Origin: SAR86 cluster bacterium SAR86B
GTDB lineage: Bacteria; Pseudomonadota; Gammaproteobacteria; Magnimaribacterales; D2472
Assembly: GCA_905181955.1 (NCBI GenBank)
Contig: CAJJAC010000007.1
Location: forward strand, 130,418-194,417
Length of the DNA stretch: 64,000 nt
Direction of reading: 5' to 3'
The notes beneath the pieces are model-generated. The model had not been told where the DNA came from and ran no database searches. It saw only the letters and a list, made by a program, of their open reading frames with translations. Positions 4,621 through 39,404 of the stretch are shown piece by piece. The first letter of the stretch is position 1; each line of letters starts with the position of its first letter. A program made the translations under genes and the position numbers.

Positions 4621-5631
4621 ATGGCTACAGACAAAAAAACAGATCTAAAAGAAACCCTAAGTCAGATTGAAAAACAGTTTGGTAAAGGTACAGTAATGAG
4701 AATGGGGGATAAAGAAATTCTTGATATTCCTTCTATATCAACAGGCTCAGTTGGCTTGGATATAGCGCTAGGTATTGGTGGCATTCCTCAGGGAAGAGTT
4801 ACTGAGATATATGGACCTGAATCATCAGGTAAAACTACATTAACATTACAGATTATTGCTGAATGCCAAAAAAAAGGTGGAACAGCTGCATTTATTGATG
4901 CAGAGCACGCACTTGATCCTCAATATGCAGGAAAGCTTGGTGTGAACGTAGACGACTTACTTTTATCACAACCTGATACTGGAGAGCAGGCATTAGAAGT
5001 AGCAGATATGTTAGTTAAATCAAATGCTGTTGATTTAGTTGTAATTGATTCTGTAGCAGCACTTGTCCCAAGAGCAGAGATTGAAGGAGAGATGGGAGAT
5101 CATCATGTTGGACTTCAAGCGAGATTAATGTCACAGGCTTTAAGAAAGATAACTGGAAATATCCAGCGCTCTGGAGCAACTGTAATTTTTATAAACCAGA
5201 TTCGTATGAAAATAGGAGTTATGTTTGGAAGTCCTGAGACAACAACTGGTGGAAATGCTCTTAAATTTTATTCATCAGTAAGACTAGATATCAGAAGAAT
5301 TGGTGCTGTCAAAGAGGGTGATGAGGTTATAGGAAATGAAACAAGGGTAAAAGTCGTTAAGAATAAGGTTTCACCTCCATTTAGACAGGCAGAATTCCAA
5401 ATTATGTATGGTCTAGGAATTAATTCAGAGGGTGAAATTTTAGACTTCGGTCAAAAATTAGGTGTTATAGAAAAAGCTGGATCTTGGTATAGCCATAATG
5501 GAGAAAAAATAGGCCAAGGAAAAGTTAATGCAAGTACATTCTTAAAAGAAAATACAGCAATAAGAGATGCTTTACTTAAAGATATTAGGGCTGAATATAT
5601 TGTTTCAAGCGCAAAACCTATCAAGAAATAA
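4621..5631 (+). CDS. recA: Recombinase RecA
   Basis: Walker [13 protein letters not shown], then IDAEHALDP and [21 protein letters not shown]. Typical length (336 aa). LexA box upstream. Confidence 0.97.
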
Positions 5632-7057: not shown

Positions 7058-7870
7058 ATGACAATGATAAAAAGAGATCCTTCGTTTGAATTGAAGCAAT
7101 ACCTATCTTCAAATTGGGCAAACGATGACGCATTCTTAACTGCAGTTTTTAATTCTTTAAGTATCAGTTTTCCAAAAGGCGAGAAGTTTTTTATGAATAG
7201 TGTTCGTGCATTTAAAGACGAAGTGAACACAGAGATGTCCGAAGCGATTCGTATGTTCTGCATACAAGAGGCAACACATACGAGAGAACACATCAAATAC
7301 AACAAACTATTATGTGAACTCAAGGGGTATGACTTTGAAGAGTTAGAAAGCATATTTGCAAGAAAACTTGAAAAATCTTATTCAGATAAAGTAGACAACA
7401 AAATGCGATTAGCAATCACAACTGCAATGGAACATATTACTGCATCAATGGGTGCAAGCATATTAAAAGGTAATCTTGTTAAGTCAGACAATCCAGTAGC
7501 AGATATGTGGAAGTGGCATAGTTTAGAAGAAGTAGAACATAAAGCAGTTGCATACGATGTTTATAAAGCAGTAAATGGTTCAGATAGAATAATGAAGATT
7601 GTAATGAGATATGCATTGATTGATATGATTCATGCAAATACAAGAGTTGCAATCAAGATGTTAAGACATGACAAACAATTCTGGAAACTATCTACATTTC
7701 AAAGCATGTTCAAATTCTTCTTTTCAAAGAAAGGAGCATTAAGAATGAATTATGCAGACTATAAATTATTTTTTGACAAAGACTTTAACCCACAAAGACA
7801 TGGCAATGATCTGGACTTAACACCTTGGAAAGAGAAATTTAGTTCTAACGAACCCATTCTAGGTAAATGA
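7058..7870 (+). CDS. 'Predicted metal-dependent hydrolase' family protein (Metal_hydrol-like) with two ExxH motifs
   Basis: 270-aa ORF with an AAGGA Shine-Dalgarno sequence (SD) 10 nt upstream. Motifs IQEATHTREH and HSLEEVEHKAVAYDVY, plus AMEHITAS. Family assignment is from memory of similar annotated proteins and is not verified. Confidence 0.65.
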   Translation: MTMIKRDPSFELKQYLSSNWANDDAFLTAVFNSLSISFPKGEKFFMNSVRAFKDEVNTEMSEAIRMFCIQEATHTREHIKYNKLLCELKGYDFEELESIFARKLEKSYSDKVDNKMRLAITTAMEHITASMGASILKGNLVKSDNPVADMWKWHSLEEVEHKAVAYDVYKAVNGSDRIMKIVMRYALIDMIHANTRVAIKMLRHDKQFWKLSTFQSMFKFFFSKKGALRMNYADYKLFFDKDFNPQRHGNDLDLTPWKEKFSSNEPILGK

Positions 7871-7903
7871 TATTTAATTAGATACTGTACTATATTGATA
7901 TCC

Positions 7904-9880
7904 ATGAAAAACCTAAAGATCTTTTTTGTATTAATTTTTATAATAAGTTCATGCTCTGAATCAGCTTCTCAAATAGATAACCCCCAGTCATTAAATCAAG
8001 AAAAGCCATTAACAGATAATCAGATTAAATTAAGGCCTGCACCAAATCCAGATATGAATGCATATTTTGGTGATTTACATGTTCATACACAAAACTCTTT
8101 TGATGCTTACAGTTTTGGAACAATAAGCACTCCAGCTCATGCATATCGTTATGCTCAAGGTCAGGCAATTCTTCATCCTACTGGGTACCAAATCCAACTT
8201 AGTCGACCACTAGATTTTTATGCTGTTACTGATCATGCAATGTTTATGGGCTTGCTAAAAGAGGCCGCTGATACAAGTTCTAAGTTTTCCCAATATAAAC
8301 TTTCAGAACCCTTCCACAATCTTAATGAATCAGTAAATGGTGGGCTTTATTCAATTTTTAAAAGGGCAAACCTCTTTAGACCTTTTGCAATATCTGTTCG
8401 TGAAAGTTTAGAAGAGGGCACTATAGAAAAATCTGAAGTGCTTAAAATTGGAAGCAGTGTTTGGCAAGAAACCATTAAGGCTGCAGATAATGCATATGTT
8501 CCTGGCACCTTTACTACTTTTGCAGGCTATGAATATTCGCAAGGAAGCGCCTCACCTATCTTAGATACTCTTCATCGCAATGTAATTTTTCGTGATACCC
8601 AGAATTTGCCTACACGGATTTTTTCAAGACTTGATAGCTCAGATCCAGAAAAGTTATGGGATTGGATGGATGATCTCAGAGCCAAAGGAGTTGAAAGTTT
8701 AGCGATCCCGCATAATTCAAACCTCTCAGGCGGTCTTTCGTTTATGTTAGATGATTTTAACGGAGTTGAAATTGATCAAAACTTTGCCCAAAAGCGAGCT
8801 CTTAATGAACCACTAACTGAAATAACGCAGGTAAAGGGAACTTCAGAAACTCACCCCTTACTATCAAAAAATGATGAATGGGCAAGTTTTGAATTAGGTG
8901 AATCTATAGACCAACCTATAGATCAACCCAAAGGAAGTTATATAAGAGATGCATATTTACGAGGTTTAGCACTTGCTGAAAAGGGCATTACCAATCCTTA
9001 TAAATTTGGTCTTATAGGAGCAAGCGACACTCATGTCGGTGGGGGTTCCGATAACGAAGAGGTATATTTTTCTAAAATTGGTGTTTTAGATGGTACTGCT
9101 GAGTTACGAGGCTCTATTCCATTTAGTCGGTTTTATGGAACTATTGCAAAAGTTATTAGACCAGAGTCTCTCGATAAAGTTGATGGAAAACATTATCTTG
9201 CTTTGAGTGATCGACTTATACAATGGTCAGCTTCTGGTGTAGCTGGGGTATGGGCTCAAGAAAATACTCGAGAATCAATTTATGATGCCTTTCGTCGCAA
9301 AGAAACATTTGCTACAAGTGGCCCAAGAATTAAAGTTCGTTTTTTTGCAGGCTATGATTTAAAAAATTTAAATTTAGATGATCAAAATCTTATAAAAGAT
9401 TTATATGCTACAGGCATATCAATGGGTGGAACACTTAGTAAAGAGAGTAATAAAGAGCCAACTTTTCTTGTCTGGGCAATTCGAGACCCTCTTGGAGCTC
9501 CTCTGCAGAGAACACAAATTATAAAAGGCTGGCTGGAAGATGGAGAGCATCGGGAAAAAGTCTTTGATGTCGCATGTTCTGATGGATTAAGTATCGATCC
9601 TGAGACATATCGCTGCCCTGATAATGGAGCTCGTGTTGACCTTACAAGCTGTTCAATAAGTGCTAATGAAGGAGCTACAGAATTAAAAACTTTTTGGAAA
9701 GATCCGGATTTTAAAGAAGATCAAGAAGCTTTTTACTATACAAGAGTCCTTGAAAATCCAGTATGCCGATGGTCAACTTGGGATTCTATTCGAGAGGGTG
9801 TTTTACCTAGATCAGATATACCAGCTACAATTCAAGAAAGGGCATGGTCCTCTCCTATTTGGATGACAGTAGATAATTAA
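7904..9880 (+). CDS. DUF3604-like lipoprotein (PHP-type metal-binding N-terminus), function unknown
   Basis: MKNLKIFFVLIFIISSC lipoprotein signal; I prefer the ATG at 7904 over the TTG at 7895. YFGDLHVHTQNSFDAY matches the HxH...D PHP-like start typical of DUF3604. Long exported domain with a Cys-rich C-terminus. Confidence 0.72.
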   Translation: MKNLKIFFVLIFIISSCSESASQIDNPQSLNQEKPLTDNQIKLRPAPNPDMNAYFGDLHVHTQNSFDAYSFGTISTPAHAYRYAQGQAILHPTGYQIQLSRPLDFYAVTDHAMFMGLLKEAADTSSKFSQYKLSEPFHNLNESVNGGLYSIFKRANLFRPFAISVRESLEEGTIEKSEVLKIGSSVWQETIKAADNAYVPGTFTTFAGYEYSQGSASPILDTLHRNVIFRDTQNLPTRIFSRLDSSDPEKLWDWMDDLRAKGVESLAIPHNSNLSGGLSFMLDDFNGVEIDQNFAQKRALNEPLTEITQVKGTSETHPLLSKNDEWASFELGESIDQPIDQPKGSYIRDAYLRGLALAEKGITNPYKFGLIGASDTHVGGGSDNEEVYFSKIGVLDGTAELRGSIPFSRFYGTIAKVIRPESLDKVDGKHYLALSDRLIQWSASGVAGVWAQENTRESIYDAFRRKETFATSGPRIKVRFFAGYDLKNLNLDDQNLIKDLYATGISMGGTLSKESNKEPTFLVWAIRDPLGAPLQRTQIIKGWLEDGEHREKVFDVACSDGLSIDPETYRCPDNGARVDLTSCSISANEGATELKTFWKDPDFKEDQEAFYYTRVLENPVCRWSTWDSIREGVLPRSDIPATIQERAWSSPIWMTVDN

Positions 9881-9889
9881 AAAATTTTA

Positions 9890-10993
9890 ATGTACCAGCT
9901 ACAAACTTATAAACAAGATATAACAAAAACAAGAATTGTTGAATCTGATAATACTGAGTCTTCTTTAGTCAATGGAGAGGTTTTAGTAAAAATTGAGAGC
10001 TTTGGTTTTACTTCTAATAACGTTACCTATGGAGTTGCTGGAGATACTATTGGCTATTGGAAATTTTTTCCTGCTATAGAGGATTCAAAAAATGAGTGGG
10101 GCTGCATCCCTGTTTGGGGTTTTGCAGAAGTTACTCATTCAACCAATAAAGATATAGAGGTGGGAGAAAGACTATTTGGTTATTTTCCTCCATCTGATTC
10201 ACTAAACTTAATCCCAATAAAAATAACTGATCAAGGCTTCACTGATGGCAAAGATCACCGTAAAGACCTTCCTGCTGTCTATAATAATTACATTAGACTC
10301 TCTGGAGAGATGAATTATGACAGCTCTATGGATAACATCAGATCTCTTCTTTTTCCATTACATATAACTTCCTTTTGTTTATGTGATGCTCTTCAAGATG
10401 AATCTTATCTTGGAGCATCTCAAGTTATTATTGTTAGCGCATCCAGCAAAACCGCAATAGGTCTTGCACAAGGTCTGGCTGACACAAATAAAGCTCCAAA
10501 AATTATTGGTCTTACATCAACTAAAAATGCTGATTTTGTTAATAGTTTAGATTGCTATGACGAAGTTATTTCATATGATCAACTATCCTCTATTAACAGC
10601 AATCTTAAGTCAGTAATGGTTGATATGGCCGGTAGCCGAGAAATTCTAGGCACTCTGCATGGTTTGCTTGGGGATAATATGCTCAAATGCTTTACTGTTG
10701 GAATGACTCATTGGGATAATAAAATAACAGCAGAAGATGCTTTAGGCCAAGCAATGCTGAGAGATCGAACAGAATTCTTTTTTGCTCCATCTCATATTCA
10801 AAAACGAGTTAAAGATTGGGGCTATGAAGGTTACAACCAAAAAATAAATACATTTATGTCATCAAGAGTAATTCAAAGTAAGAAATGGATGAAAGTTAAA
10901 GAAATTGTTGGTATAAATATTTTTTTACCCACTTATAACAAAATTGTTGCTGGAGACATAAATCCTAAGGAAGGAATAATTGTCAAAATATAG
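9890..10993 (+). CDS. DUF2855-like protein (resembles a medium-chain dehydrogenase/reductase fold), function unknown
   Basis: 367-aa ORF 9 nt after the DUF3604 gene. GroES-like N-terminus GEVLVKIESFGFTSNNVTYG. Central VIIVSASSKTAIGLAQGL is Rossmann-like but lacks a classical GxGxxG. Confidence 0.6.
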   Translation: MYQLQTYKQDITKTRIVESDNTESSLVNGEVLVKIESFGFTSNNVTYGVAGDTIGYWKFFPAIEDSKNEWGCIPVWGFAEVTHSTNKDIEVGERLFGYFPPSDSLNLIPIKITDQGFTDGKDHRKDLPAVYNNYIRLSGEMNYDSSMDNIRSLLFPLHITSFCLCDALQDESYLGASQVIIVSASSKTAIGLAQGLADTNKAPKIIGLTSTKNADFVNSLDCYDEVISYDQLSSINSNLKSVMVDMAGSREILGTLHGLLGDNMLKCFTVGMTHWDNKITAEDALGQAMLRDRTEFFFAPSHIQKRVKDWGYEGYNQKINTFMSSRVIQSKKWMKVKEIVGINIFLPTYNKIVAGDINPKEGIIVKI

Positions 10994-12712: not shown

Positions 12713-14482
12713 ATGCGATCACATTATTGTGGTGAAGTGACATCAAAAGATCTTGATACCAATATTTCTATTTGTGGCTGGGTGCACAGAAGAAGAGATC
12801 ATGGCGGTATTATTTTTCTTGATATAAGAGATATTAGGGGAATATGTCAGGTTGTTGTAAACCCTGAAAATAAATTAGCTTTTGAAATAGCGGATAATTG
12901 TAGAAATGAATTTGTAATTAAAGTTTCAGGAATGGTCTTAACAAGACCTGAAGGAACCATCAACAGCAATATGCCTACTGGAGAAATTGAATTAGAGGCA
13001 GAGAATATTGAGCTTTTAAATAAAGCAGTTACTCCGGCTTTTCCATTAGATAATTATCAGGACGTAAATGAGGATGTTAGATTAAAGAATAGAGTTCTTG
13101 ATTTAAGACGTCCTGAAATGAATCATAGAATTGTTACAAGGTCTAAAATAACCTCTGTAATTAGAAATTACCTTGAAGATAATAACTTTCATGAAATTGA
13201 AACGCCCATTCTAACAAGAGCTACACCTGAGGGAGCAAGAGACTATATTCTTCCTAGTAGAGTTCATCCGGGTAGCTTCTTTGCTTTACCTCAATCACCT
13301 CAATTATTTAAGCAGCTATTAATGATGGGAGGATTTGATAAATATTATCAGATTGCCAGATGCTTTAGAGATGAAGATCTCAGAGCTGATAGACAACCTG
13401 AATTTACCCAAGTTGACATAGAAGCATCCTTTGTAGAAACAAAAGATATTATTTCAACAGGTACTGAAATGATGAAGCTTTTATTAAATAAATTTGTTAA
13501 CCATCAAATTGAAGAAATTCCTGCATTAAATTGGCATCAATCAATGGAAGAGTATGGCTGTGACAAGCCTGATCTAAGAATCCCTTTAAAGCTTGTTGAA
13601 ATATCTAATTTAGTTGCAAATGAAGAGTTTAAAGTTTTTTCTGGACCAGCTAAAGATAAAGAGTCTCGAGTTGTTGCCCTTAAAATTCCTAATGGAAATT
13701 CTTTATCAAGAGGCCAGATTGATGAATATACAAAATATGTAGGAAAGCTTGGAGCTAAAGGACTAGCTTACATAAAAATTAATGATGTAAATGATCTTGA
13801 AAACGGCTTGCAATCTCCAATTTTAAAATTCCTTCATCAAGATACCATTAAAAGCTTAGTAGAAAATTTAGATCTTCAAAGTGATGATCTTTTATTTTTT
13901 GGTGCAGGCTCTAACAATGTTGTGAACTTGAGTATGAGTAGCTTAATCAAAAAAATTGGAAAAGATCTAAATCTTTATACTTGCAAATGGGCACCTTGCT
14001 GGATAGTTGATTTTCCTATGTTTGAAAAAAATAAGGAAGGTAATTTAACCTCACTACACCATCCATTTACTATGCCAAAGTCATCTCTTGATGAGTTAGT
14101 TGATTCCCCAGAAAGCGTTATTGCAGAGGCTTATGACATAGTTCTGAATGGTTATGAAGTTGGTGGTGGATCATTAAGGGTTCATAGTCCAAATATGCAA
14201 GAAGCAATCTTTAAAGCATTAAATATTTCTGATGAAGAAGCTCAAAATAAATTTGGTTTCTTGTTAAAGGCATTATCTTCAGGTTGTCCACCTCATGGAG
14301 GTATAGCATTTGGCCTTGATCGCTTAGTTATGCTTTTAACTGATACTGCAAATATAAGAGACGTCATAGCATTTCCAAAAACTCAAAGCGCTTCTTGCCT
14401 TTTAACAGAAGCACCAAACTCAGTTGATGAAAATCAATTAGAGGAATTATTTATTGAGTCTACCTATAAAGAGGAAGAGTAA
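12713..14482 (+). CDS. aspS: Aspartyl-tRNA synthetase
   Basis: MRSHYCGEV..., GWVHRRRDHGGIIFLDIRD (OB domain), FRDEDLRADRQPEFTQVD (motif 2) and GGIAFGLDRLVMLL (motif 3). 589 aa, bacterial type. Confidence 0.96.
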   Translation: MRSHYCGEVTSKDLDTNISICGWVHRRRDHGGIIFLDIRDIRGICQVVVNPENKLAFEIADNCRNEFVIKVSGMVLTRPEGTINSNMPTGEIELEAENIELLNKAVTPAFPLDNYQDVNEDVRLKNRVLDLRRPEMNHRIVTRSKITSVIRNYLEDNNFHEIETPILTRATPEGARDYILPSRVHPGSFFALPQSPQLFKQLLMMGGFDKYYQIARCFRDEDLRADRQPEFTQVDIEASFVETKDIISTGTEMMKLLLNKFVNHQIEEIPALNWHQSMEEYGCDKPDLRIPLKLVEISNLVANEEFKVFSGPAKDKESRVVALKIPNGNSLSRGQIDEYTKYVGKLGAKGLAYIKINDVNDLENGLQSPILKFLHQDTIKSLVENLDLQSDDLLFFGAGSNNVVNLSMSSLIKKIGKDLNLYTCKWAPCWIVDFPMFEKNKEGNLTSLHHPFTMPKSSLDELVDSPESVIAEAYDIVLNGYEVGGGSLRVHSPNMQEAIFKALNISDEEAQNKFGFLLKALSSGCPPHGGIAFGLDRLVMLLTDTANIRDVIAFPKTQSASCLLTEAPNSVDENQLEELFIESTYKEEE

Positions 14483-15219
14483 TGGCTGGACATTCCAAAT
14501 GGGCAAATATAAAGCATAGAAAAGCTAGACAAGATGCCTCACGTGGAAAAGTTTGGACAAAAGTTATAAGGGAAATCACAGTCGCTGCAAAAGGAGGACC
14601 AGATCCTGCAGATAATCCTAGATTACGACTGGCATTAGATAAAGCAAATGCATCTAATATGCCTAAAGATAATATTAAAAGAGCAATTCAGAAAGGCTCT
14701 GGTACAGGTGAGATGGGAGCAATTGAAGAGATTACATTTGAGGGTTATGGACCAAATGGGGTTGCTATATTAGTTGAGACCATGACAGATAATCGAAATA
14801 GAACTGTAGCTGATGTCAGACACGCCTTTTCAAAATTTGGAGGCAACTTGGGAACAGATGGCTCAGTTGCATATCTTTTCAATAAGATTGGAGTAATTAA
14901 TATTGCTAGCTCTTATGATGAAGACACTGTCATGGAAATAGCTCTTGATGCAGGTGCAGATGATATGTCTTCCAATGAAGATGGTTATGAAGTTGTTACA
15001 ACTCCTATAAATCTTGGTAAAGTTATAGAAGCTTTATCTGCTAGTAATATAGAAACTCTTGAAGCTGAAGTTGCAACAAGAGCTGATATCTTGGTTGACC
15101 TTGATGTGGAAGCATCAGAAAAAGTTTTAAAGATTATGAATTTTATGGATGACTTAGATGATGTTCAAGAAGTTCATACAAATGGAGAGTTTGCTGATGA
15201 TTTTGAGATTGAGGAATAG
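14482..15219 (+). CDS. yebC: YebC/PmpR family transcriptional regulator
   Basis: MAGHSKWANIKHRKARQDASRGKVWTKVIREITVAAK is the hallmark YebC N-terminus. TAATG junction with aspS. Confidence 0.93.
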   Translation: MAGHSKWANIKHRKARQDASRGKVWTKVIREITVAAKGGPDPADNPRLRLALDKANASNMPKDNIKRAIQKGSGTGEMGAIEEITFEGYGPNGVAILVETMTDNRNRTVADVRHAFSKFGGNLGTDGSVAYLFNKIGVINIASSYDEDTVMEIALDAGADDMSSNEDGYEVVTTPINLGKVIEALSASNIETLEAEVATRADILVDLDVEASEKVLKIMNFMDDLDDVQEVHTNGEFADDFEIEE

Positions 15220-15221
15220 TT

Positions 15222-15647
15222 TTGCCAGTTAATTCTAGAGCCAAGGGTGCAAATTTTGAAAGAGAAATTGGAAATTTATTGGTCCAAGATCTTAATTTAA
15301 TTAATCCAGTAAAGAGAATTCTTGAGCAGACCAGAACAAAAGAATTGCCTGATTTGAGGCTTGGCAGGTGGTGTATTGAGTGTAAAAGATATGGTGATGG
15401 TGGAGAGCCGCCAAAAGAATGGTGGGAACAAGTTTTAAAATCTTGTTCTGCAGAGTCTTTAATGCCTGCACTTATTTATAAATTTAACAGAAGACCAATC
15501 AAAGTTAGATTACTGGCATCTTCAATTAATCCAGCAATCCAAAATAAATTAATAACTGTGGATTTATTATGGGATGATTTTATAGAGATAATCTTAGAAT
15601 TATTTCAAAAAGATATTCAACTCCATGAAGAAACATTTCAAGTGTAA
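15222..15647 (+). CDS. Small PD-(D/E)xK nuclease-like protein resembling archaeal Hjc-type Holliday junction resolvases
   Basis: 141-aa ORF. TTG start at 15222 with a GAGGAA SD 7 nt upstream; there is no in-frame ATG before the conserved N-terminus. Motifs are SRAKGANFEREIGNLL (KGxxxERE), LPDL (Asp44) and CIECK (Glu53-x-Lys55). Spacing is similar to Pyrococcus Hjc (KGAQAERELIKLL ... VDLVA ... IEVK). It occupies the ruvC slot after yebC. Confidence 0.55.
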   Translation: MPVNSRAKGANFEREIGNLLVQDLNLINPVKRILEQTRTKELPDLRLGRWCIECKRYGDGGEPPKEWWEQVLKSCSAESLMPALIYKFNRRPIKVRLLASSINPAIQNKLITVDLLWDDFIEIILELFQKDIQLHEETFQV

Positions 15648-16032
15648 AGACTTTTCCTTAACAGTATTTTGTGAAGATACTGATTTTCAAGGAATTGTTT
15701 ACCATGCTAACTACCTAAAATATTTTGAAAGGGCTAGAACCCAATTTCTTATAGATCAGGATATATCTCAAATTTTACTCGAAGCATCTAAACTAGCTTT
15801 TGTTGTAAGAGACATCAATTTAAGATTTATTTCGCCAGCTAAACTTGAAGATAAACTTATTGTCAGAAGCTCGGTTCAATTCATTTCGAAGGCAAGATTG
15901 CTATTTTCTCAGCAAATAATTCAGTTAAATAATGATACTATTATATGTCGCGGAGGGGTTGAAGTATGTTTTGTAGATTTAATAAAAAACAAACCACGAT
16001 CTTTCCCTGAAAGGTTATTAAAAATTTTCTAA
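15625..16032 (+). CDS. ybgC: Tol-Pal-associated acyl-CoA thioesterase YbgC
   Basis: Hotdog-fold motif VFCEDTDFQGIVYHANYLKYFERARTQFL (compare E. coli [28 protein letters not shown]). Located directly upstream of tolQ. Confidence 0.85.
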   Translation: MKKHFKCKDFSLTVFCEDTDFQGIVYHANYLKYFERARTQFLIDQDISQILLEASKLAFVVRDINLRFISPAKLEDKLIVRSSVQFISKARLLFSQQIIQLNNDTIICRGGVEVCFVDLIKNKPRSFPERLLKIF

Positions 16033-16044
16033 TGGTTAACTTAT

Positions 16045-16722
16045 ATGAATGACATATCAACAATTAACTTATTCCTTGAGGCTGGATTAGTTGTAAAAAG
16101 CGTCATGGTAATATTATTATTAATTTCATTATTCTCTTGGATAATTATTTTTGAGAGATATTTTCTTTATAGAAAAATTAAAAGTCTAAACATTATTTTT
16201 GAGCGTAAATTCTGGTCTGGTGAAGATCTCAATACTTTATTTAAAGAAGTTAATAATAATGATCTTGTCTTATCAGGTTCCTCTAGTGTTTTCAGGAATG
16301 CTTTTAAAGAATTCAATCGTTTAAAGTCTGATGAGGATGTTAATGAGTTAGATTTAGAAGGAATCAATAGGTCTATGAGAGTAGCTATTGCTAGAGATGA
16401 AGAGGATATGAACAAGCACTTACCTTTTCTTGCAAATGCTGGATCAGTAAGTCCATACATAGGTTTACTTGGAACAGTTTGGGGAATAATGACCTCTTTT
16501 CAAGGGTTATCAGATGCCACACAAGCAACCATTAATGCGGTAGCTCCAGGTATTTCTGAGGCTTTAATAGCAACAGCTATGGGTCTTTTTGCAGCCATAC
16601 CAGCAGTTGTTGCTTATAATCGCTTTACTTCACAATCAGATTCTATTTCCCAATCAACAGCTATTTTTGCTGAAGAACTCGCTAGTATTTTTTATAGGCA
16701 GGTTTTAAAAAATAAGAAATGA
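16045..16722 (+). CDS. tolQ: Tol-Pal system protein TolQ
   Basis: MotA/TolQ/ExbB signature LANAGSVSPYIGLLGTVWGIM and APGISEALIATAMGLFAAIPAVVAYN. Confidence 0.93.
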   Translation: MNDISTINLFLEAGLVVKSVMVILLLISLFSWIIIFERYFLYRKIKSLNIIFERKFWSGEDLNTLFKEVNNNDLVLSGSSSVFRNAFKEFNRLKSDEDVNELDLEGINRSMRVAIARDEEDMNKHLPFLANAGSVSPYIGLLGTVWGIMTSFQGLSDATQATINAVAPGISEALIATAMGLFAAIPAVVAYNRFTSQSDSISQSTAIFAEELASIFYRQVLKNKK

Positions 16723-17141
16723 TTTATCGCTTAGCGAAAAGAAAAAAGTTACAAGCCGAGATTAATGTAGTTCCATATATTGATGTAATGTTAGTTCTGT
16801 TAATTATCTTTATGGTCTTATCTCCTTTACTGATTCAAGGCATAGAGGTTAACTTACCTCAAACTGATACAACAAAAATGTCAGTCCAAAATGAGCCTTT
16901 AGTTATTTCCATAGATTCCAAAGGTAATTATTATCTAAACCTTGGTGATGAGAATCTTGCAATATCTATTGAAGAGCTAAAAAGAAAGGCAGTTATAATT
17001 TATCAAGCAAATAATGATATTGAAGTAGTTTTTCAAAGTGATGAAGCTGTAAGTTTCAATAGTGTTGCTAAAGCTATGGCTGCAATTCAGAGTGTTGGGA
17101 TTTCTAAGATTGGTATAGTGACAACTGGATATGCAGACTAG
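16719..17141 (+). CDS. tolR: Tol-Pal system protein TolR
   Basis: EINVVPYIDVMLVLLIIFMV (ExbD/TolR TM segment with conserved Asp). 140 aa. ATGA overlap with tolQ. Confidence 0.9.
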   Translation: MIYRLAKRKKLQAEINVVPYIDVMLVLLIIFMVLSPLLIQGIEVNLPQTDTTKMSVQNEPLVISIDSKGNYYLNLGDENLAISIEELKRKAVIIYQANNDIEVVFQSDEAVSFNSVAKAMAAIQSVGISKIGIVTTGYAD

Positions 17142-17763
17142 AGCTAATTACTTACAAGCGTCCTTCTTTTCATTTTTAATTCATGCGGCCCTTTTTCTAT
17201 ACTTAATAGGTTTTTTTTACTCAGAAAAACAATTAAGACCAATTTTAAGCAAACCAGTTACTGTAAACATTATTGTTGATGACTTACCAAATAAAAATAT
17301 TAAGCAATCAGAGTCTACAAAAGTTCTTAAAAAAGTAACCCAAACAAGTCCAGTCACTATAGCTAAAGATAGCGCTCTAGAAATTCCAAAAATAAGCTCT
17401 GAAGGATCAATTATTAATCTTGAAGATTTATTAAACCAAGAATTGGAAGCATTAGATTCAAATCAACTAGAGAATGAAATTAATCAATACAGCAGCCTGA
17501 TCATAAACTTAATAGAGTCTGCCTGGATTAAGCCAAAGAATATTCAGGAAAATTTAATATGCGATATAAAGATAAAAATAAACTCACGAGGAAGAATTAT
17601 AAATATAAGCTTAATCCAAAGTAGTGGTAACATTCGTTTTGATAATTCAGCTCTTCAAGCAGTCAAAAGAGTTGAGACATTCTCATTTTTTAATGAAATA
17701 AAAAAAGAAACATATGAAGATGTCTTTAAAAATATTGTTATTAGCTTTAATCCCTCAAAATGA
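17131..17763 (+). CDS. tolA: TolA, unusually short (210 aa)
   Basis: N-terminal TM segment (FFSFLIHAALFLYLIGF), a short linker, and a C-terminal TolA/TonB-like domain (AWIKPKNIQENLICDIKIKINSRGRIINISLIQSSGNIRFDNSALQAVKRV). Positioned between tolR and tolB. Confidence 0.75.
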   Translation: MQTRANYLQASFFSFLIHAALFLYLIGFFYSEKQLRPILSKPVTVNIIVDDLPNKNIKQSESTKVLKKVTQTSPVTIAKDSALEIPKISSEGSIINLEDLLNQELEALDSNQLENEINQYSSLIINLIESAWIKPKNIQENLICDIKIKINSRGRIINISLIQSSGNIRFDNSALQAVKRVETFSFFNEIKKETYEDVFKNIVISFNPSK

Positions 17764-19034
17764 AAAAATTTCTTATATTAATATTACTTCCAAATTTATT
17801 ATTTGCAGAATTGCTGCTTGAGATTACTAAAGGATCTGAAAATCCTTACAGAGTTGCAATAATTCCCTTTCAAGGAACTAATAGCTCGGTAAATATAATA
17901 GTTGAGGTATTAAAGAGTGACTTGATTAGATCTGGAGAGTTTTTTATTTTAGATGAAGAGATGCTTTTATCTATCCCAAGTAACATAGAGGAAATAAAGC
18001 CTTCTGAATGGAAATTACTGAATATTGATTTTATTGTTTTAGGTAATGTTATAGATGAAGAAAATTCTGGTTTAAAAGCAACTTATCAAATTTATGATGT
18101 TAATAAAAAAAATAAGATTAGATCTTCAACCGTCTTTGGTATACCTGGAAAGTTGCGTCAGCTTTCTCATTATATTAGTGATGGTATTTATGAGACTGTT
18201 ACCGGAATAAAGGGAGTCTCTGCTACGAAAATCCTTTATGTTAATGAAATAATCAATAGTACTGATTCAGATTATATTTTATATGTAGCAGATGCAGATG
18301 GAGCCAATGAACAAGTGCTATTAAAAAGTAGTGAGCCAATAATATCACCAGCCTGGTCTCCAGACTCAAAAAAAATAGCCTATGTTTCATTTGAAACAGG
18401 AATGGCAAAAGTTTTTATTCAAGATATCGGAACCGGAGAGCGTGAATTAGTCTTGTTAAATGATAATCAAATTAGCTCACCAGCCTGGTCTCCTGATGGA
18501 AAATTACTTTCTTTAACTTTATATCAAGATGGTAATGCGGAGATTTATATCTTAAATTTACTTAATAAGAACCTCACAAGACTCACAAAACATTACTCAA
18601 TAGATACAGAGTCTAGCTGGTCTCCAAAAGGAACTAAAATTCTCTTTACTTCTGGAAGATCTGGGGCTCCTCAATTATATGAAATAGATCTAACTAAGTT
18701 CAATATCAAGCCTATGCGACTTACCTTTGAAGGTAATTACAATGCTAAAGGTTCTTATTTACCAAATAACGAAGGTATAGTTTTTGTTCACAGATCAAGT
18801 AATCAATTTCAAATAGCTCTAAAGTATTTTAATGAGAATTTTATAAGACCATTAACTGAATCAAAAATGGATGAATCACCCAGTGTTTCTCCTAATGGTA
18901 ATGTGATAGTCTATGCAATAACTGATAATACGTCAGGAATGATTGCAGGAGTAACTTTAAGCGGTGCTACTTTTGTTCTTCCTGCTACCAGTGGAAAAGT
19001 AAGAGAGCCAGCCTGGTCTGGATTTTTAAGATAA
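17760..19034 (+). CDS. tolB: Tol-Pal system beta-propeller protein TolB
   Basis: Signal peptide followed by repeated PAWSPD(S/G)KK / SWSPKG / PSVSPNG propeller motifs. 424 aa. Confidence 0.93.
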   Translation: MKKFLILILLPNLLFAELLLEITKGSENPYRVAIIPFQGTNSSVNIIVEVLKSDLIRSGEFFILDEEMLLSIPSNIEEIKPSEWKLLNIDFIVLGNVIDEENSGLKATYQIYDVNKKNKIRSSTVFGIPGKLRQLSHYISDGIYETVTGIKGVSATKILYVNEIINSTDSDYILYVADADGANEQVLLKSSEPIISPAWSPDSKKIAYVSFETGMAKVFIQDIGTGERELVLLNDNQISSPAWSPDGKLLSLTLYQDGNAEIYILNLLNKNLTRLTKHYSIDTESSWSPKGTKILFTSGRSGAPQLYEIDLTKFNIKPMRLTFEGNYNAKGSYLPNNEGIVFVHRSSNQFQIALKYFNENFIRPLTESKMDESPSVSPNGNVIVYAITDNTSGMIAGVTLSGATFVLPATSGKVREPAWSGFLR

Positions 19035-19053
19035 TTTTTAGGAGAACTAAATA

Positions 19054-19548
19054 ATGAAAAACAATAATAAATTAATAATTGCATATTCCTTTATAGGTTT
19101 ATTTGTTGCATCTTGCAGTAGCGTTCAAGTTACCGAAGAGGCTGTCTACGAAGACTCTATTCAAAGCATAGAGGTTTCATCTAACAGATCAGAATCATCT
19201 ACTCCTATGGAGTCTAAGGCGGTTCTTGCCAATGCAACTGTATATTTTGAATTTGATAGTTTCAACCTTTCTACAAGATCTATACAGGCTTTAAAGAGCA
19301 TAACTGAATTAATGCAAGAAAACTCTGCAATTGAGATAACCATTGCTGGACATGCTGATGAAAGGGGAACCAGAGAATATAATCTTGCTCTGGGGCAAAG
19401 AAGAGCAGAAAGTGTTGCTGATTATATTGTCTTAAAAAATATCTCAAGATCCAGACTAACTATCAAAAGTTATGGAGAAGAAATGCCAATGTCTTCTAGC
19501 TCTAATGAAAGATCATGGGCAAGAAACAGAAGAGCTGAAATTAATTAA
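19054..19548 (+). CDS. pal: Peptidoglycan-associated lipoprotein Pal
   Basis: Lipobox FVASC. OmpA-like domain VYFEFDSFNLS...IAGHADERGTREYNLALGQRRAESV...SWARNRRAEI. Confidence 0.92.
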   Translation: MKNNNKLIIAYSFIGLFVASCSSVQVTEEAVYEDSIQSIEVSSNRSESSTPMESKAVLANATVYFEFDSFNLSTRSIQALKSITELMQENSAIEITIAGHADERGTREYNLALGQRRAESVADYIVLKNISRSRLTIKSYGEEMPMSSSSNERSWARNRRAEIN

Positions 19549-19554
19549 ATAAAA

Positions 19555-20220
19555 ATGCTTAAGTTAATTCTTAATCAATCAGTATTATTTAGCTTTTTAG
19601 TTTCTTTTTCCTTAGTCGCATTAGCGCAAGACTCCCAATCAACTGAATCTGATATATTATTTTTAAAGATTCAAGAGCTTGAGATGGAAATGGCTGATTT
19701 AAGAAATGAGGTAGAAGCTCAAAACTATTTACTCGAGAAGTTAATCAAAGAATCAGTAAAAAATGATGATAAACCTGCTGAAATTAAAAACATTGATTCC
19801 TCTATAGGCGATGAAGTTTACCGATTTGATGGAATCAATGATTCTAAAAGTATTAGTGAAATTTATAACGAAGCAGTTAGGTCTCTTGCAGACGAAGATT
19901 ACGATTCAGCAAAAAAATTGTTCATGTATTTGATAAATAACTTTTCTGATCCAGATAAATTACCTTTATCTTTGTTTTGGTTAGGTGAAATTGAATTCTC
20001 TTCATCAAACTTTGAAGAGAGTAAGAAGCATTATATGCAATTAATTTCTTCCTTTGAAAATCACTGGAGAGTGCCACTTGCTCATAAGAAATTAGGTGAC
20101 ATATCCTTTAAGCTAGGCAATATAAAAACGGCAAAAGAGAAGTATCAATTTGTTATTCGAGAGTTTCCTAATAATCCAGCATCATCTATGTCTTTGCAAA
20201 GTTTAGAAGATATGGAATAA
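19555..20220 (+). CDS. cpoB: Tol-Pal cell-division coordinator CpoB (YbgF)
   Basis: Signal peptide, coiled-coil segment (LKIQELEMEMADLRNEVEAQNYLLEKL) and a C-terminal TPR-like region. Located after pal. Confidence 0.8.
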   Translation: MLKLILNQSVLFSFLVSFSLVALAQDSQSTESDILFLKIQELEMEMADLRNEVEAQNYLLEKLIKESVKNDDKPAEIKNIDSSIGDEVYRFDGINDSKSISEIYNEAVRSLADEDYDSAKKLFMYLINNFSDPDKLPLSLFWLGEIEFSSSNFEESKKHYMQLISSFENHWRVPLAHKKLGDISFKLGNIKTAKEKYQFVIREFPNNPASSMSLQSLEDME

Positions 20221-20249: not shown

Positions 20250-20325
20250 GGGTCGCTAGCTCAGTTGGTAGAGCAGTTGACTTTTAATCAATTGGTCACA
20301 GGTTCGAATCCTGTGCGACCCACCA
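20250..20325 (+). tRNA. tRNA-Lys (anticodon UUU)
   Basis: GGGTCGCTAGCTCAGTTGGTAGAGCAGTTGACTTTTAATCAATTGGTCACAGGTTCGAATCCTGTGCGACCCACCA. Near-identical to E. coli tRNA-Lys. Anticodon loop is CT-TTT-AA and the CCA end is encoded. Confidence 0.96.
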
Positions 20326-27493: not shown

Positions 27494-27925
27494 GTGAAAC
27501 TCACCACTAGAAGCAAATATGCTGTAAATGCGCTTACTGAACTTTGTTCACTTCAAAATGACGGACCAGTTGCACTTTCAGACATATCAAATCGTCAAAA
27601 TATTGAAATAACATATCTTGAACAGTTATTTAGAAAACTAAGAATAGCTGGAATTGTGGAAAGCGTTAGAGGAAGGAAGGGTGGCTATATATACGCCAAA
27701 GATCCACTATCGGTATCTATAAAAGATATTATGGATGCAGTTGATGAGAATTTAGATGCTACGAGTTGTAATGGAGCCTCTTCTTGTCACCATGGAAAAA
27801 GGTGTAATGCCCATAATCTCTGGAGTGAATTAAACGATGTGGTTGATTCATTTCTTAGTAACGTAACTATTTCACATTTAATGCAAAATAATAATTCACA
27901 TATTCAAATTAAGGAGATAATTTGA
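27494..27925 (+). CDS. iscR: Fe-S cluster regulator IscR (Rrf2 family)
   Basis: The N-terminus (GTG-initiated) [13 protein letters not shown] aligns with E. coli MRLTSKGRYAVTAM. Cluster ligands are [17 protein letters not shown], i.e. C-x5-C-x5-C-x2-H, as in E. coli C92/C98/C104/H107. Confidence 0.9.
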
Positions 27926-29151
27926 TGAAAACAGAAACCCAGGCACCAATATATTTAGACTATGCATCTACAACACCGGTTGATCCAAGAGTTGCAAGCA
28001 AGATGATGGAATATCTAACTCCCGAAGGAGAGTTTGGAAATCCAGCATCCAGATCTCATAGATATGGGTGGGCTGCTGATGAAGCCGTCGAAGAAGCAAG
28101 GTCACATGTTGCAAATTTAGTTAATTGTGATCCAAGAGAGATTGTTTGGACTTCTGGTGCAACAGAGGCAGACAATCTAGCTATAAAAGGAGTAGCAAGA
28201 TTTTATAAATCTAAAGGAAATCATATTATTACCTCTAAAATTGAGCATAAGGCTGTTTTAGATCCATGCAGACAATTAGAGAGAGAAGGTTTTGAGGTTA
28301 CTTATCTCGATCCCAGTGAAGGTGGAATTATTACACCAGAAGCAATAAAAGAGGCATTACAGGAAAATACGATTTTAGTCTCAGTTATGCATATTAATAA
28401 TGAGCTTGGAACACTTAATGATATAGAGGGAATAGGATCTATCGTTAGAAAGCATGGAGCTTTTTTCCATGTTGATGCAGCTCAAAGTACCGGGAAAGCA
28501 GAAATAGATTTATCTAATTTGCCAGTAGATTTAATGTCCTTTTCAGCTCATAAAACCTATGGACCTAAAGGTATAGGGGCTCTTTTTGTAAGAAGAAAAC
28601 CAAGAGTTAGAATAGAAGCTCTTATTCATGGTGGTGGCCATGAACGAGGCATGAGATCAGGGACTCTCCCAACTCATCAGATTGTAGGTATGGGTGAAGC
28701 ATTTAGAATTGCACAACAAGAAATGAGCAGTGATTTGGTAAAGATTAGTAATTTTCATGAAAAATTTCTAAAAGAAGCTATGAAAATAGAGCACGCATAC
28801 ATCAATGGTGATGTTAATAACAAGGTGCCAAATATATTAAATATCAGTTTTAATTTTGTTGAAGGTGAATCCTTGATAATGGGCCTAAAAGATATTGCCG
28901 TTTCTTCAGGATCAGCATGTACTTCTGCAAGTTTAGAGCCTTCTTATGTTTTAAGGGCTTTGGGTAGAAAAGATGAGCTAGCTCATAGTTCTATAAGATT
29001 TTCATTTGGAAGATTTACAGAAGAAGCTGATGTTGAAAGGACTATAGAGATCTTGGGCAATGTTGTAGAGAGATTAAGAGAATTATCCCCTCTATGGGAA
29101 ATGCATCTAGATGGCGTAGATCTTGACGCAGTAGAGTGGGATACACATTAA
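27925..29151 (+). CDS. iscS: Cysteine desulfurase IscS
   Basis: [18 protein letters not shown]-lysine region [17 protein letters not shown] and active-site loop [24 protein letters not shown] at 27925 with an AAGGAG SD 8 nt upstream. The TTG at 27922 in the ORF track is rejected. Confidence 0.96.
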
Positions 29152-29172
29152 TAATACGTATAGGAGTATAAA

Positions 29173-29577
29173 ATGGCATATAGCAAAAAAGTAGTAGATA
29201 AGTTTGAGGAGACATTAAACAATCCTCAAGCATTTAAAGTAGGAAAATTTGATCCAAAGGAAGTTAATGTGGGCACTGGAATGGTCGGAGCCCCAGCCTG
29301 CGGTGATGTAATGAAACTTCAGATTAAATGTGAGCAAAAGGGAAATACTCACATAATTAAGGATGTAAAGTTCAAAACTTACGGTTGTGGTTCTGCAATT
29401 GCATCATCTAGTGAATTAGTCGAAATGCTTATAGGTATGACATTGGAGGAAGCTAAAGAGATTAAAAATAAAGAAATAGTTGATGCTTTAGAATTACCTC
29501 CTATAAAAATTCATTGCTCAGTATTAGCTGAGGATTCTATTAAGCAAGCTATTCAAGATTTTGAATCAAAACAGTAA
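29173..29577 (+). CDS. iscU: Fe-S scaffold IscU
   Basis: GAPACGDVMKLQI, FKTYGCGSAIASSS and LPPIKIHCSVLAEDSI, which carry the three conserved Cys and the LPPVK-like motif. Confidence 0.95.
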   Translation: MAYSKKVVDKFEETLNNPQAFKVGKFDPKEVNVGTGMVGAPACGDVMKLQIKCEQKGNTHIIKDVKFKTYGCGSAIASSSELVEMLIGMTLEEAKEIKNKEIVDALELPPIKIHCSVLAEDSIKQAIQDFESKQ

Positions 29578-29586
29578 ATTACTTAG

Positions 29587-29928
29587 ATGGATACTTTTAA
29601 ACCAGCCGAACTTAATTTTTCTGATAAGGCTATAGAGCACTTTAATAAAAGTTTAGATAAAAGAGGAAATGGTCTTGGGATTCAAATAGGTATCAGAAAA
29701 GCCGGTTGTTCAGGGTATGAGTACTTTTTTGAATTTGTTGATGAAGTAAAAGTAGATGATACTATTTTTGAAAAAAATGGGTGTAAAATATTTGTTGATC
29801 AACATAGCCTTTCTTTTCTTAAAGGTACCTTGGTAGATTATTCTGAAGAAGGATTAAATAAAGGAATCAAGTTTGAAAACCCTAACGCAAAAGCTGTTTG
29901 CGGTTGTGGGGAAAGTTTCACCATATAA
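29587..29928 (+). CDS. iscA: Fe-S carrier IscA
   Basis: GIRKAGCSGYEY and C-terminal CGCGESF motifs (Cys-x-n-Cys-x-Cys). 113 aa. Confidence 0.92.
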   Translation: MDTFKPAELNFSDKAIEHFNKSLDKRGNGLGIQIGIRKAGCSGYEYFFEFVDEVKVDDTIFEKNGCKIFVDQHSLSFLKGTLVDYSEEGLNKGIKFENPNAKAVCGCGESFTI

Positions 29929-29932
29929 ACTT

Positions 29933-30274
29933 ATGGCAAAAATAAAAATTTGGCCTCATGAGGAACTTTGCCCTAATGGAGCAAATATTGAAAGTCTTCC
30001 AGATGAAACTATATGTGAGGCTGCACTAAGAGAAGGTATAAAAATAGAGCACGCATGTGAGATGTCCTGTGCTTGCACCACATGCCACTGTATCATCAGA
30101 AAGGGTTTTGAGAGTTTTGATGATGCTAGTGATACAGAAGAGGACATGTTAGATAAGGCTTGGGGTCTAGAGCAGACTTCAAGGTTAAGTTGCCAAGCAG
30201 TTCCACCTATAAATGAAGAGATAGAAATTGAACTTCCAAAGTACAATATTAATATGGTTTCAGAGGATCACTGA
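29933..30274 (+). CDS. fdx: [2Fe-2S] ferredoxin of the ISC system
   Basis: MAKIKIWPHEELCPNGA...CEMSCACTTCHCII...SRLSCQ shows the adrenodoxin-type Cys pattern. ATG at 29933 lies 4 nt after the iscA stop. The upstream extension to 29873 in the ORF track would overlap iscA and is rejected. Confidence 0.9.
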   Translation: MAKIKIWPHEELCPNGANIESLPDETICEAALREGIKIEHACEMSCACTTCHCIIRKGFESFDDASDTEEDMLDKAWGLEQTSRLSCQAVPPINEEIEIELPKYNINMVSEDH

Positions 30275-30477
30275 TGAATGAATTAGATTGGCTTGATATT
30301 AATGATATAGCTATTGAGCTATATGATAATTTTCCTGATATTGATCCTCAATGGATTAGTTTTCCAGATCTTCATAAGAAAGTTTGTGAATTAGATGGTT
30401 TTATAGGAAATCCAACTAAATCAAATGAACAAATTCTTGAAGCAATTCAGATGACATGGATAGAAGAATACAAATAA
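30274..30477 (+). CDS. iscX: Fe-S assembly protein IscX (YfhJ)
   Basis: 67-aa acidic protein. IAIELYDNFPDIDPQWISFPDLHKKVCELDGF aligns with E. coli [32 protein letters not shown]. Confidence 0.85.
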   Translation: MNELDWLDINDIAIELYDNFPDIDPQWISFPDLHKKVCELDGFIGNPTKSNEQILEAIQMTWIEEYK

Positions 30478-30516
30478 GTCTTTTATAATAGCGAAAATTT
30501 TTTAATAAGGATTAAT

Positions 30517-38661: not shown

Positions 38662-39045
38662 ATGAAAAATGATCATAGACCAGTTAATATAAATTTACTT
38701 AAGATAAAGTTGCCAATATCGGCTTTAACTTCAATAACTCATAGGTTAGCTGGAATGTACATTTTTTTTATAACATACCCTTTATCAGTTTATTTATTTT
38801 TTCTTGCTTCAACTAACCAGGAGAACTTTACGTATTTAACAAATATGTTGATAAATAGCTCTTATTTAGCAACTTTTGTTGCTTTTAGTTTTTTAGTTCT
38901 TTGGTATCATATTTTAACTGGAGTTAGGCATTTAATAATGGATATGCATATAGGTGAATCTCTTCAAGCTAGTAAAGTTTCATCAATTTTTGTTTTATGT
39001 ATTTGGTTTATTTCAGTTATAGCAACTGCAATGGTTATCTTTTAG
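38662..39045 (+). CDS. sdhC: Succinate dehydrogenase cytochrome b556 subunit
   Basis: RPVNINLLKIKLPISALTSITHRLAGM aligns with E. coli RPVNLDLQTIRFPITAIASILHRVSGV. I prefer the ATG at 38662 (AAAGGA upstream) over the TTG at 38653. Confidence 0.85.
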   Translation: MKNDHRPVNINLLKIKLPISALTSITHRLAGMYIFFITYPLSVYLFFLASTNQENFTYLTNMLINSSYLATFVAFSFLVLWYHILTGVRHLIMDMHIGESLQASKVSSIFVLCIWFISVIATAMVIF

Positions 39046-39404
39046 TGAAAGGATCAACCATATGGTACCTTCAAAGATGTAGTTCTATCTTTATATTTAT
39101 ATATATAATTTATGTTGTTGTATTTATTATTTCCTCACTACCAATAGCATTTAATGAATGGTTTTTGTTTAAAAGCTCATTATTATTTAAGTTGTCAACT
39201 ACTACAGCATTTCTTAGTATTTTAGTTCATGCTTACATTGGTTTATGGACCATAGGAACTGACTATCTAACACCAAGAACCTTGGGCTTCCTGAATTTTA
39301 CTTTATCAAAAATTGCAGATACATCTAGGCTTTTATACAACATACTCTTCACCGTTCTTGGTCTGCTCTTATACTTTTATTTACTCTTACTTGTTTGGAT
39401 ATAG
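39045..39404 (+). CDS. sdhD: Succinate dehydrogenase membrane anchor subunit
   Basis: GTG at 39045 overlaps the sdhC TAG (TAGTG). It gives 119 aa with three TM segments and [14 protein letters not shown] (E. coli HAWIGMWQVLTDYV). The longer ORF-track start at 38997 would overlap sdhC by 49 nt. Confidence 0.8.

Follow-up and report, generated by a model that had tools for sequence, protein, structure and literature searches.

A phage-type nuclease gene in the place of ruvCAB in SAR86 bacteria: a candidate Holliday junction resolvase

Gene order around ORF141

The window considered here (the whole stretch of DNA analyzed, 64 kb, from SAR86 cluster bacterium SAR86B) is a segment of a SAR86 (Magnimaribacterales) chromosome with 33% G+C. 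Few bacterial groups of the surface ocean are as abundant as SAR86. An open reading frame (ORF) of 141 codons, referred to below as ORF141 and predicted to encode a PD-(D/E)xK nuclease, is located in the following order of genes: proS (minus strand), a Zn-ribbon gene, aspS, yebC, ORF141, ybgC, tolQ, tolR, tolA, tolB, pal, ybgF. Precomputed Pfam tags confirm this order on contigs that have a gene for an identical ORF141 protein. The place between yebC and ybgC is that of ruvC, ruvA and ruvB, which encode the Holliday junction resolvasome.

The initial annotation, made from the window alone, cited the string aspS-yebC-ruvC-ruvA-ruvB-ybgC-tol from other gammaproteobacteria and placed ORF141 in the slot of the three ruv genes. 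For comparison, 80 loci were fetched from species-representative genomes with the window YebC and queried with RuvC, RuvA and RuvB of Pseudomonas entomophila and with AspS, YebC, ORF141, YbgC and TolQ of the window; they constitute a sample, not a census, and only four SAR86-type species are included. This synteny, aspS-yebC-ruvC-ruvA-ruvB-(ybgC)-tolQ, was seen in P. entomophila and in about 70 other gammaproteobacterial species among these loci. Each of the four SAR86-type loci (L004, L058, L063 and L079, from two SAR86 single-cell genomes, one SAR86 metagenome-assembled genome (MAG) and one gammaproteobacterial MAG) carries aspS-yebC followed by an ORF141 homolog and is devoid of ruv genes, ybgC-tolQ being next in three of the four. 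Their ORF141 homologs are 52–67% identical to that of the window, and their YebC proteins 54–82%.

The replacement recurs across the SAR86-type loci sampled. Loci L001–L003 and L090–L094 also show yebC followed by a gene of the same nuclease family (PDDEXK_15, described below); contigs with this arrangement carry ORF141 homologs 96, 85, 75, 62 and 55% identical to the window protein. An ORF of 136–143 aa stands alone in the ruv slot of ten SAR86-type lineages. A tblastn search with the Pseudomonas RuvC, RuvA and RuvB found nothing in the window, and RuvC found nothing in the SAR86 loci. The 64-kb window contains neither a RuvB Walker A motif nor ruv genes, and its remaining Pfam tags are those of housekeeping genes.

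At one of the four loci (L079, positions 8738–9930, SAR86 MAG FRAM_WSC20), the PDDEXK_15 gene and the yebC stop overlap by 4 nt, and the next gene is not ybgC-tolQ but a 246-aa ORF (MSNLVKGSDLLVSCLEEEGVEYIFGLPGEE...), thiamine-diphosphate-enzyme-like in appearance. The adjacency to yebC at a locus where ybgC-tolQ does not follow suggests that the nuclease gene travels with yebC and not with the tol genes.

The junctions of ORF141 with its neighbors are tight. Its TTG codon, the earliest start option downstream of an in-frame stop, lies 2 nt after the yebC stop codon (TAG, 15217–15219), and its end overlaps the ybgC gene, which starts with ATG at 15625, by 23 nt. The coordinates, gap, overlap and Shine-Dalgarno-like motif described initially were all found again on the sequence. 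The proposed TTG start is supported by the coincidence of ortholog N-termini, as other SAR86 orthologs, mostly ATG-started, have an N-terminus identical in position (MxxNSRxKGA), and by the retention of both TTG and GAGGAA in two close relatives (L090 and L091). Promoter- and terminator-like sites between 12.3 and 20.4 kb show no excess over shuffled sequence and are uninformative on an internal promoter. The 2-nt gap, the overlap and the lack of excess sites would fit co-transcription of aspS-yebC-ORF141-tol, short of proof.

ORF141 could be regarded as nonfunctional, i.e., as an open frame that arose by chance or as what the ruvCAB deletion left behind to decay, and the need for a TTG start in the window and the overlap with ybgC are the observations that favor such a reading. 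A large protein search, however, yielded 449 homologs of conserved length; close homologs, where named, belong to "SAR86 cluster bacterium" or "Gammaproteobacteria bacterium", and some of their contigs are 1.0–1.3 Mb long. The numbers of nonsynonymous substitutions per site (dN) in ORF141 and yebC, respectively, are 0.028 and 0.044 between the window and L090, 0.089 and 0.106 for L091, and 0.216 and 0.310 for L092. For the closest pair (window and L090), the synonymous value (dS) of ORF141 is 1.39 and the dN/dS ratio (ω) is about 0.02; across the closest pairs ω is about 0.02–0.09, and these ratios are approximate, as dS exceeds 1 (saturation) in all pairs, so that the comparison with yebC dN is the robust one. 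ATG codons at the matching N-terminus in other lineages, a Pfam match above threshold, a confident predicted fold and the lack of similarity to RuvC, RuvA or RuvB argue in the same direction. A nonfunctional ORF141 is vanishingly improbable and, judged by sequence conservation, already refuted; ORF141 is a genuine constrained SAR86 gene.

Table 1. Coordinates of ORF141, of its sequence elements and of related genes in the window
Feature	Coordinates	Strand	Basis
ORF141, 141-aa PD-(D/E)xK nuclease (PF24608) with a predicted Hjc-like fold, candidate Holliday junction resolvase	15222..15647	+	ORF, Pfam, structure model, hhalign, selection
GAGGAA, Shine-Dalgarno-like motif within the last yebC codons	15211..15216	+	5 nt before TTG; also in L090 and L091
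E13 codon, first active-site acidic residue, KGxxFER motif, helix 1	15258..15260	+	invariant; aligns with the Hjc catalytic Glu
D44 codon ("PD" of PD-(D/E)xK), start of a beta-strand	15351..15353	+	invariant; model strand 45–47; aligned with Hjc Asp
E53-C54-K55 codons ("ExK"), next beta-strand	15378..15386	+	E53 and K55 invariant; model strand 50–57; Hjc IEVK aligned
aspS, upstream part of the conserved string	12713..14482	+	Pfam tags, synteny
yebC (TACO1/YebC family), normally precedes ruvC	14482..15219	+	Pfam tags, synteny
ybgC (4HBT thioesterase), normally follows ruvB	15625..16032	+	Pfam tags, synteny
tolQ-tolR-tolA-tolB-pal-ybgF, downstream part of the conserved string	16045..20220	+	ORFs, Pfam tags
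recA, strand exchange, source of junctions, retained	4621..5631	+	RecA_N and RecA_C Pfam tags

Protein family, active site and predicted fold

Residues 4–100 of the ORF141 protein match Pfam family PF24608 (PDDEXK_15, "phage putative PDDEXK endonuclease") with 43.3 bits (gathering threshold 27, E 4.7e-11), and the same family matches all 103 of the 103 aligned ORF141 relatives. The motifs read in the initial annotation, KGANFERE (with E13), P43-D44 and E53-C-K55, are present in the protein. No exception to five residues, G9, E13, D44, E53 and K55, occurs when 47 or 103 diverse relatives, down to 27% identity, are aligned; R6, K8, R14, R32, L34, Q36, W67, W68, Q70 and P82 are near-invariant in both alignments. 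The family is small, since an exhaustive search with its profile found only 483 clusters among 1.84 billion representatives.

The Hjc family (PF01870) gives no match to ORF141 at E ≤ 10, and it is weakly matched by 5 of the 103 relatives (best E 2.4e-4). Weak NERD matches occur among a few relatives. ORF141 has no Pfam match to RuvC (PF02075), RecU (PF03838) or RusA (PF05866), its relatives have none to RecU either, NCBIfam provides no match, and a search of PDB sequences with the single ORF141 sequence gave one chance L25 match only. Membership in YraN/UPF0102 and in RecU is ruled out by the lack of Pfam matches. A ruvC remnant is ruled out by the lack of RuvC similarity, and the absence of RuvC features noted at the outset is borne out by the missing PF02075 match and by the differing fold.

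Membership in the RusA family is suggested by a PHROG label alone, as there is no Pfam RusA match. ORF141 matches PHROG 244 (1.6e-13), which is labelled "RusA-like Holliday junction resolvase"; on the evidence of motifs and profiles, "RusA-like" is a misnomer. The label of PHROG 244 is spreading into phage genome annotations: phage records NC_048878.1 (5965–6420) and locus L085 (5001–5456) bear it, yet have the E...D...ExK signature and the PDDEXK_15 match.

The structure of ORF141 was predicted with AlphaFold2 from the 103-sequence alignment (predicted local distance difference test, pLDDT, 86.2; predicted template modelling score, pTM, 0.83). The model comprises helix 3–23, strand 45–47 (D44), strand 50–57 (E53, K55), helix 65–74 and strand 81–88; the strand preceding D44 (residues ~29–34) is of low confidence. 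As expected of a PD-(D/E)xK core (alpha-beta-beta-beta-alpha-beta), D44 is predicted to open one strand and E53-x-K55 to lie in the next, and the neighbors of the model in fold are PD-(D/E)xK enzymes. A nuclease fold, as anticipated in the initial annotation, is thus predicted, and Hjc is its top match: ranks 1–9 of the Foldseek search against PDB are occupied by Archaeoglobus fulgidus Hjc (probability 0.95–1.00, E 1e-3 to 2e-2, template modelling (TM) score 0.40–0.55) and ranks 11–15 by Hjc of Pyrococcus furiosus and Sulfolobus tokodaii (1gef, 2eo0). A ThaI-type restriction endonuclease (3ndh) is also among the Foldseek matches; no RecU chain is found within the top 50 PDB matches. An earlier model built from SAR86 sequences only had a pLDDT of 79 and gave marginal Foldseek matches.

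Profile comparisons point to the same group of enzymes. The family profile has nine weak matches among PDB sequences, seven of which are Hjc or Hje with the catalytic residues aligned (including 1GEF), and hhalign of the ORF141 family with the three Hjc fragments from this PDB profile search gives a probability of 95.9% and E 5.5e-9 over 93 columns. Among the viral structures of BFVD, the best matches are members of the family itself (TM 0.75–0.78), and proteins named Holliday junction resolvase, of a Lactobacillus phage and of a Saccharolobus rudivirus, appear at lower ranks. The Hjc-like character claimed initially is supported by the predicted fold, the profile and the aligned catalytic residues; the sequence family is PDDEXK_15 and not Hjc PF01870. 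By its modelled fold and its active site, ORF141 is Hjc-like, yet it belongs to a separate phage-borne sequence family.

Phage relatives, loss of RuvABC and the proposed role

In a neighbor-joining tree of 107 family members, the SAR86-type sequences (at least 48% identical to the window protein) form a single bipartition with a bootstrap of 95/100. The nearest members outside SAR86 are 40–46% identical and are encoded on contigs of 31–36 kb (uncultured marine phage), one of which comes from Tara Oceans; these contigs also carry genes of a phage lysozyme, an Sf6-type small terminase, a Sak-type single-strand annealing protein and helix-turn-helix (HTH) regulators. In Roseobacter phage CRP-406, the family gene adjoins those of an exonuclease-like PD-(D/E)xK protein, a single-stranded DNA-binding protein (SSB) and a primase/helicase; in Alteromonas phage R7M, it is located directly upstream of the small terminase gene. 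Positions in the recombination or replication module or before the terminase are typical of phage junction-resolving and debranching enzymes. A single-protein search of IMG/VR viral contigs revealed no SAR86-type copy and only one distant phage match (39% identity). From these sequence relationships, the simplest history would be that an ancestor of SAR86 picked up the phage gene a single time and that it has been inherited vertically since.

A pair of nuclease genes is encoded by one Joint Genome Institute (JGI) phage contig of 34.9 kb (L086, 8001–8817). There, the PDDEXK_15 gene and another small gene of a nuclease family (PF24579, PDDEXK_14) overlap, and the pair is located downstream of an HTH regulator and upstream of HTH_36 and the Sf6-type terminase, with a Sak-type gene nearby on the opposite strand. 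No such paired PDDEXK_15/PDDEXK_14 module was seen in SAR86.

A family that is mostly phage-borne, with one UniRef homolog named "Restriction endonuclease", could also suggest that ORF141 is a defence or selfish element (a restriction-like nuclease, a toxin or a prophage remnant) and not a housekeeping gene. This is very improbable. PADLOC-DB defence models give no family match to ORF141 at E ≤ 10, and neither a partner methylase nor an antitoxin nor any further phage gene is present at the locus. The gene keeps the same place on the chromosome in SAR86 lineages that diverged deeply (YebC 53–59% identical), its dN tracks that of yebC, its copies are monophyletic, and the lack of SAR86-type copies in IMG/VR argues against a mobile element as well.

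The loss of RuvABC in SAR86 can be followed in published marker tables. The closed genome of SAR86 isolate HIMB1674 is listed as devoid of the RuvA markers PF01330 and PF07499, the RuvB C-terminal marker PF05491 and the RuvC marker PF02075, and of the 47 environmental genome columns examined, 45 score zero for each of these markers (Ramfelt et al. 2024, PMC11582366 Table S1). Displacement of ruvCAB from its own site would lose its meaning if the intact genes were present elsewhere; their markers are absent from HIMB1674 and from nearly all of the columns examined. According to the same source, 27 markers are systematically absent across 732 environmental SAR86 genomes (PMC11582366). RadA, RecN, MutS and MutL are likewise listed as absent from HIMB1674 and nearly all environmental SAR86 genomes, and RecF, RecO and RecR as present in HIMB1674 (PMC11582366 Table S1). 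Ramfelt et al. give one sentence to the pruning of recombination and mismatch repair and discuss no replacement for the Ruv proteins (PMC11582366).

Since RuvABC is lost while RecA and RecFOR are kept, the most likely function of ORF141 would be that of the junction-resolving enzyme of the cell. On this basis, ORF141 is probably, though with considerable room for doubt, a phage-derived Hjc-like resolvase that took the place of ruvCAB at its own locus in the ancestor of SAR86. Its dimerization, junction specificity and resolvase function are what we infer from analogy with Hjc.

The following sequence of events could be envisaged. The PDDEXK_15 gene of a phage would have been captured once, by the ancestor of SAR86 (Magnimaribacterales). 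Its product could act, by analogy with Hjc, as a Mg2+-dependent homodimer that recognizes the structure of four-way DNA and probably of other branched forms, and paired nicks made via E13, D44, E53 and K55 would resolve Holliday junctions. For RuvC, as known from the RuvABC resolvasome, the cognate sequence must be brought to the crossover. Structure-specific cutters, unlike RuvC, have no cognate-sequence requirement, and RuvAB may therefore be dispensable to them: sequence-tolerant cutting would remove the need for RuvAB-driven scanning and, with it, for the motor. Branch migration, where required, could proceed spontaneously or be driven by RecA or RecG. We propose tentatively, and with less confidence than the displacement itself, that the SAR86 order finishes homologous recombination without RuvA, RuvB, RuvC and RadA, using a single 141-aa phage-derived, Hjc-like, sequence-tolerant resolvase swapped into the ruv locus.

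A different DNA role is also conceivable for a domesticated phage PD-(D/E)xK nuclease, such as cleaving flaps or forks, incising DNA specifically at damage or maintaining the nucleoid. In that case the gene would sit in the ruv slot by accident, having landed there before the deletion of ruvCAB, and junctions would be avoided or handled by RuvX, RecG or RecQ-Topo III dissolution. Several observations that weigh against a resolvase are those on which this explanation can draw. PD-(D/E)xK enzymes of the size of ORF141 include restriction-type and repair nucleases, and the promiscuity of the fold is reflected here in weak Mrr_cat matches of two relatives, in the NERD matches, in 3ndh among the structural neighbors and in the UniRef name quoted above. 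The structural similarity to Hjc is moderate (TM 0.40–0.58, best E 1e-3), and the window protein has no PF01870 match. Some relatives are labelled Holliday junction resolvase in JGI, UniRef and PHROG; these labels are annotation transfers. A literature search for PDDEXK_15/PF24608 turned up no paper naming the family and no biochemically characterized member.

Further points on the same side concern the repertoire of SAR86. For some bacteria, YqgF/RuvX has been suggested to act as a resolvase. Its marker (PF03652) is listed as present in HIMB1674 (PMC11582366 Table S1). The shedding of RadA, RecN, MutS and MutL makes the outright loss of a pathway plausible. The genome-wide absence of ruvABC is taken from published hidden Markov model (HMM) marker tables and not from a genome scan in this analysis, and it covers RuvA, RuvB and RuvC.

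Another DNA role is nevertheless unlikely on balance. In both structure and profile comparisons, Hjc consistently comes out best, ahead of restriction or repair enzymes, the N-terminal KGxxFER motif is common to Hjc, and the phage relatives are located at positions typical of resolvases. Junctions presumably still form in SAR86, as RecA and RecFOR are kept, and the exact replacement of the resolvase locus in all SAR86 lineages sampled would be a notable coincidence.

The displacement by a phage-derived resolvase would also be compatible with the economy of SAR86 genomes. The ruvCAB genes occupy about 2.05–2.3 kb (loci L006 and L027) and ORF141 0.43 kb; the swap saves about 1.6–1.9 kb, which fits genome streamlining.

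Other features of the window are as follows. In the isc cluster (27494–30480, iscR-iscS-iscU-iscA-fdx-iscX), hscB and hscA are missing between iscA and fdx, where they are located in E. coli; a further trimmed pathway of a streamlined genome may be seen here. The sole RNA gene detected in the 64 kb encodes tRNA-Lys (anticodon TTT, 20250–20325) and comes right after ybgF. As the E. coli lysT tRNA cluster is at the same place after ybgF/cpoB, synteny reaches beyond tol-pal. Between a thiolase gene and proS (7058–10993), there is a trio of adjacent genes without assigned function, which is kept on related contigs; the products are a Metal_hydrol protein (PF10118, 270 aa), a 661-aa DUF3604 protein whose N-terminus resembles a signal peptide and a 367-aa DUF2855 protein. 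A 135-aa ORF (38997–39404) occupies the sdhD position of sdhCDAB-sucAB-lpd-sucCD and, unlike its neighbors, has no recorded Pfam match; its product is probably the SdhD membrane anchor in a divergent form.

Comparison with known systems

The family of ORF141 is already known from Pfam and PHROGs, as are some resolvase labels and, from a supplementary table, the absence of Ruv markers. The link of a Hjc-like phage-type nuclease with the vacated ruvCAB slot across an abundant free-living order lacking the resolvasome appears to be new. Literature searches for SAR86 with ruvC and with Holliday junction found no statement connecting a phage-type nuclease with that slot, and a 2025 Magnimaribacterales preprint does not mention recombination. 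If the proposed displacement is correct, it represents a clear case of in situ non-orthologous gene displacement by a viral gene and gives a testable function to a Pfam family (PDDEXK_15) that has none; as far as could be found, it would also be the first cellular housekeeping role proposed for a Hjc-type enzyme in Bacteria. It would help to explain how streamlining prunes DNA repair in SAR86, from which RadA, RecN and MutS/MutL have also gone, and would account for the low scores that genome-completeness estimators give to SAR86.

Among known systems, ORF141 belongs with the phage endonucleases of its own family, PF24608/PHROG 244 (for example CRP-406 gp7, R7M gp15 and a Salmonella phage BP63-like protein), which are 27–33% identical to it and share its catalytic tetrad. 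The SAR86 clade differs from them in being chromosomal, single-copy, vertically inherited and included in a housekeeping operon.

Archaeal Hjc (PF01870; 2WCW and 2WIW of A. fulgidus, 1GEF of P. furiosus, 2EO0 of S. tokodaii) is of similar size (~120–140 aa) and has the PD-(D/E)xK core, the N-terminal K-G-x-x-x-E-R helix motif, the D and the E-x-K at near-equal spacing. The 29–43 loop (RILEQTRTKELPD) and the long C-terminal helix (117–138) are peculiar to the ORF141 family, whose host in SAR86 is bacterial and whose origin is phage, not archaeal.

RusA of the cryptic prophage DLP12 of E. coli is likewise phage-derived, and rus mutations suppress ruv mutants in a RecG-dependent manner (summarized in PMC3403352). 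RusA is a phage-derived resolvase able to substitute for RuvABC in bacteria, and ORF141 would be alike in this. The fold of RusA is unrelated to that of ORF141, and the E. coli enzyme is a normally silent laboratory suppressor, whereas the replacement in SAR86 is fixed order-wide. If the reading of ORF141 as a resolvase holds, SAR86 would possess minimal bacterial junction processing with neither a RuvAB nor a RadA motor, a natural and fixed counterpart of laboratory RusA suppression.

RecU of Firmicutes and Mollicutes is the textbook resolvase of PD-(D/E)xK fold that replaces RuvC non-orthologously (PMC3403352). As noted above, ORF141 resembles it neither in Pfam matches nor among the top 50 Foldseek matches. 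Lineages with RecU retain RuvAB, and recU is never adjacent to ruvAB (PMC3403352); in SAR86, RuvA and RuvB are lost and the replacement is located in the ruv slot itself. In a 2012 survey, RuvAB was found in all sequenced bacteria but some small, condensed, mostly parasitic genomes, and yebC and ruvC shared an operon in roughly half of the species that have RuvC (Zhang 2012, PMC3403352). RuvAB being near-universal in free-living bacteria, and RecU, the sole established replacement of RuvC, keeping RuvAB, the case of SAR86 would stand apart from both.

The RuvC-RuvA-RuvB resolvasome shares with ORF141 the locus, between yebC and ybgC/tolQ, and the presumed end function, i.e., the removal of junctions. 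RuvC has an RNase H fold, cuts at preferred sequences and is the partner of the RuvAB branch-migration motor. All three proteins lack similarity to ORF141, and no motor gene stands alongside it. If ORF141 acts as proposed, the bacterial resolvasome would be dispensable in nature, given a suitable structure-specific cutter.

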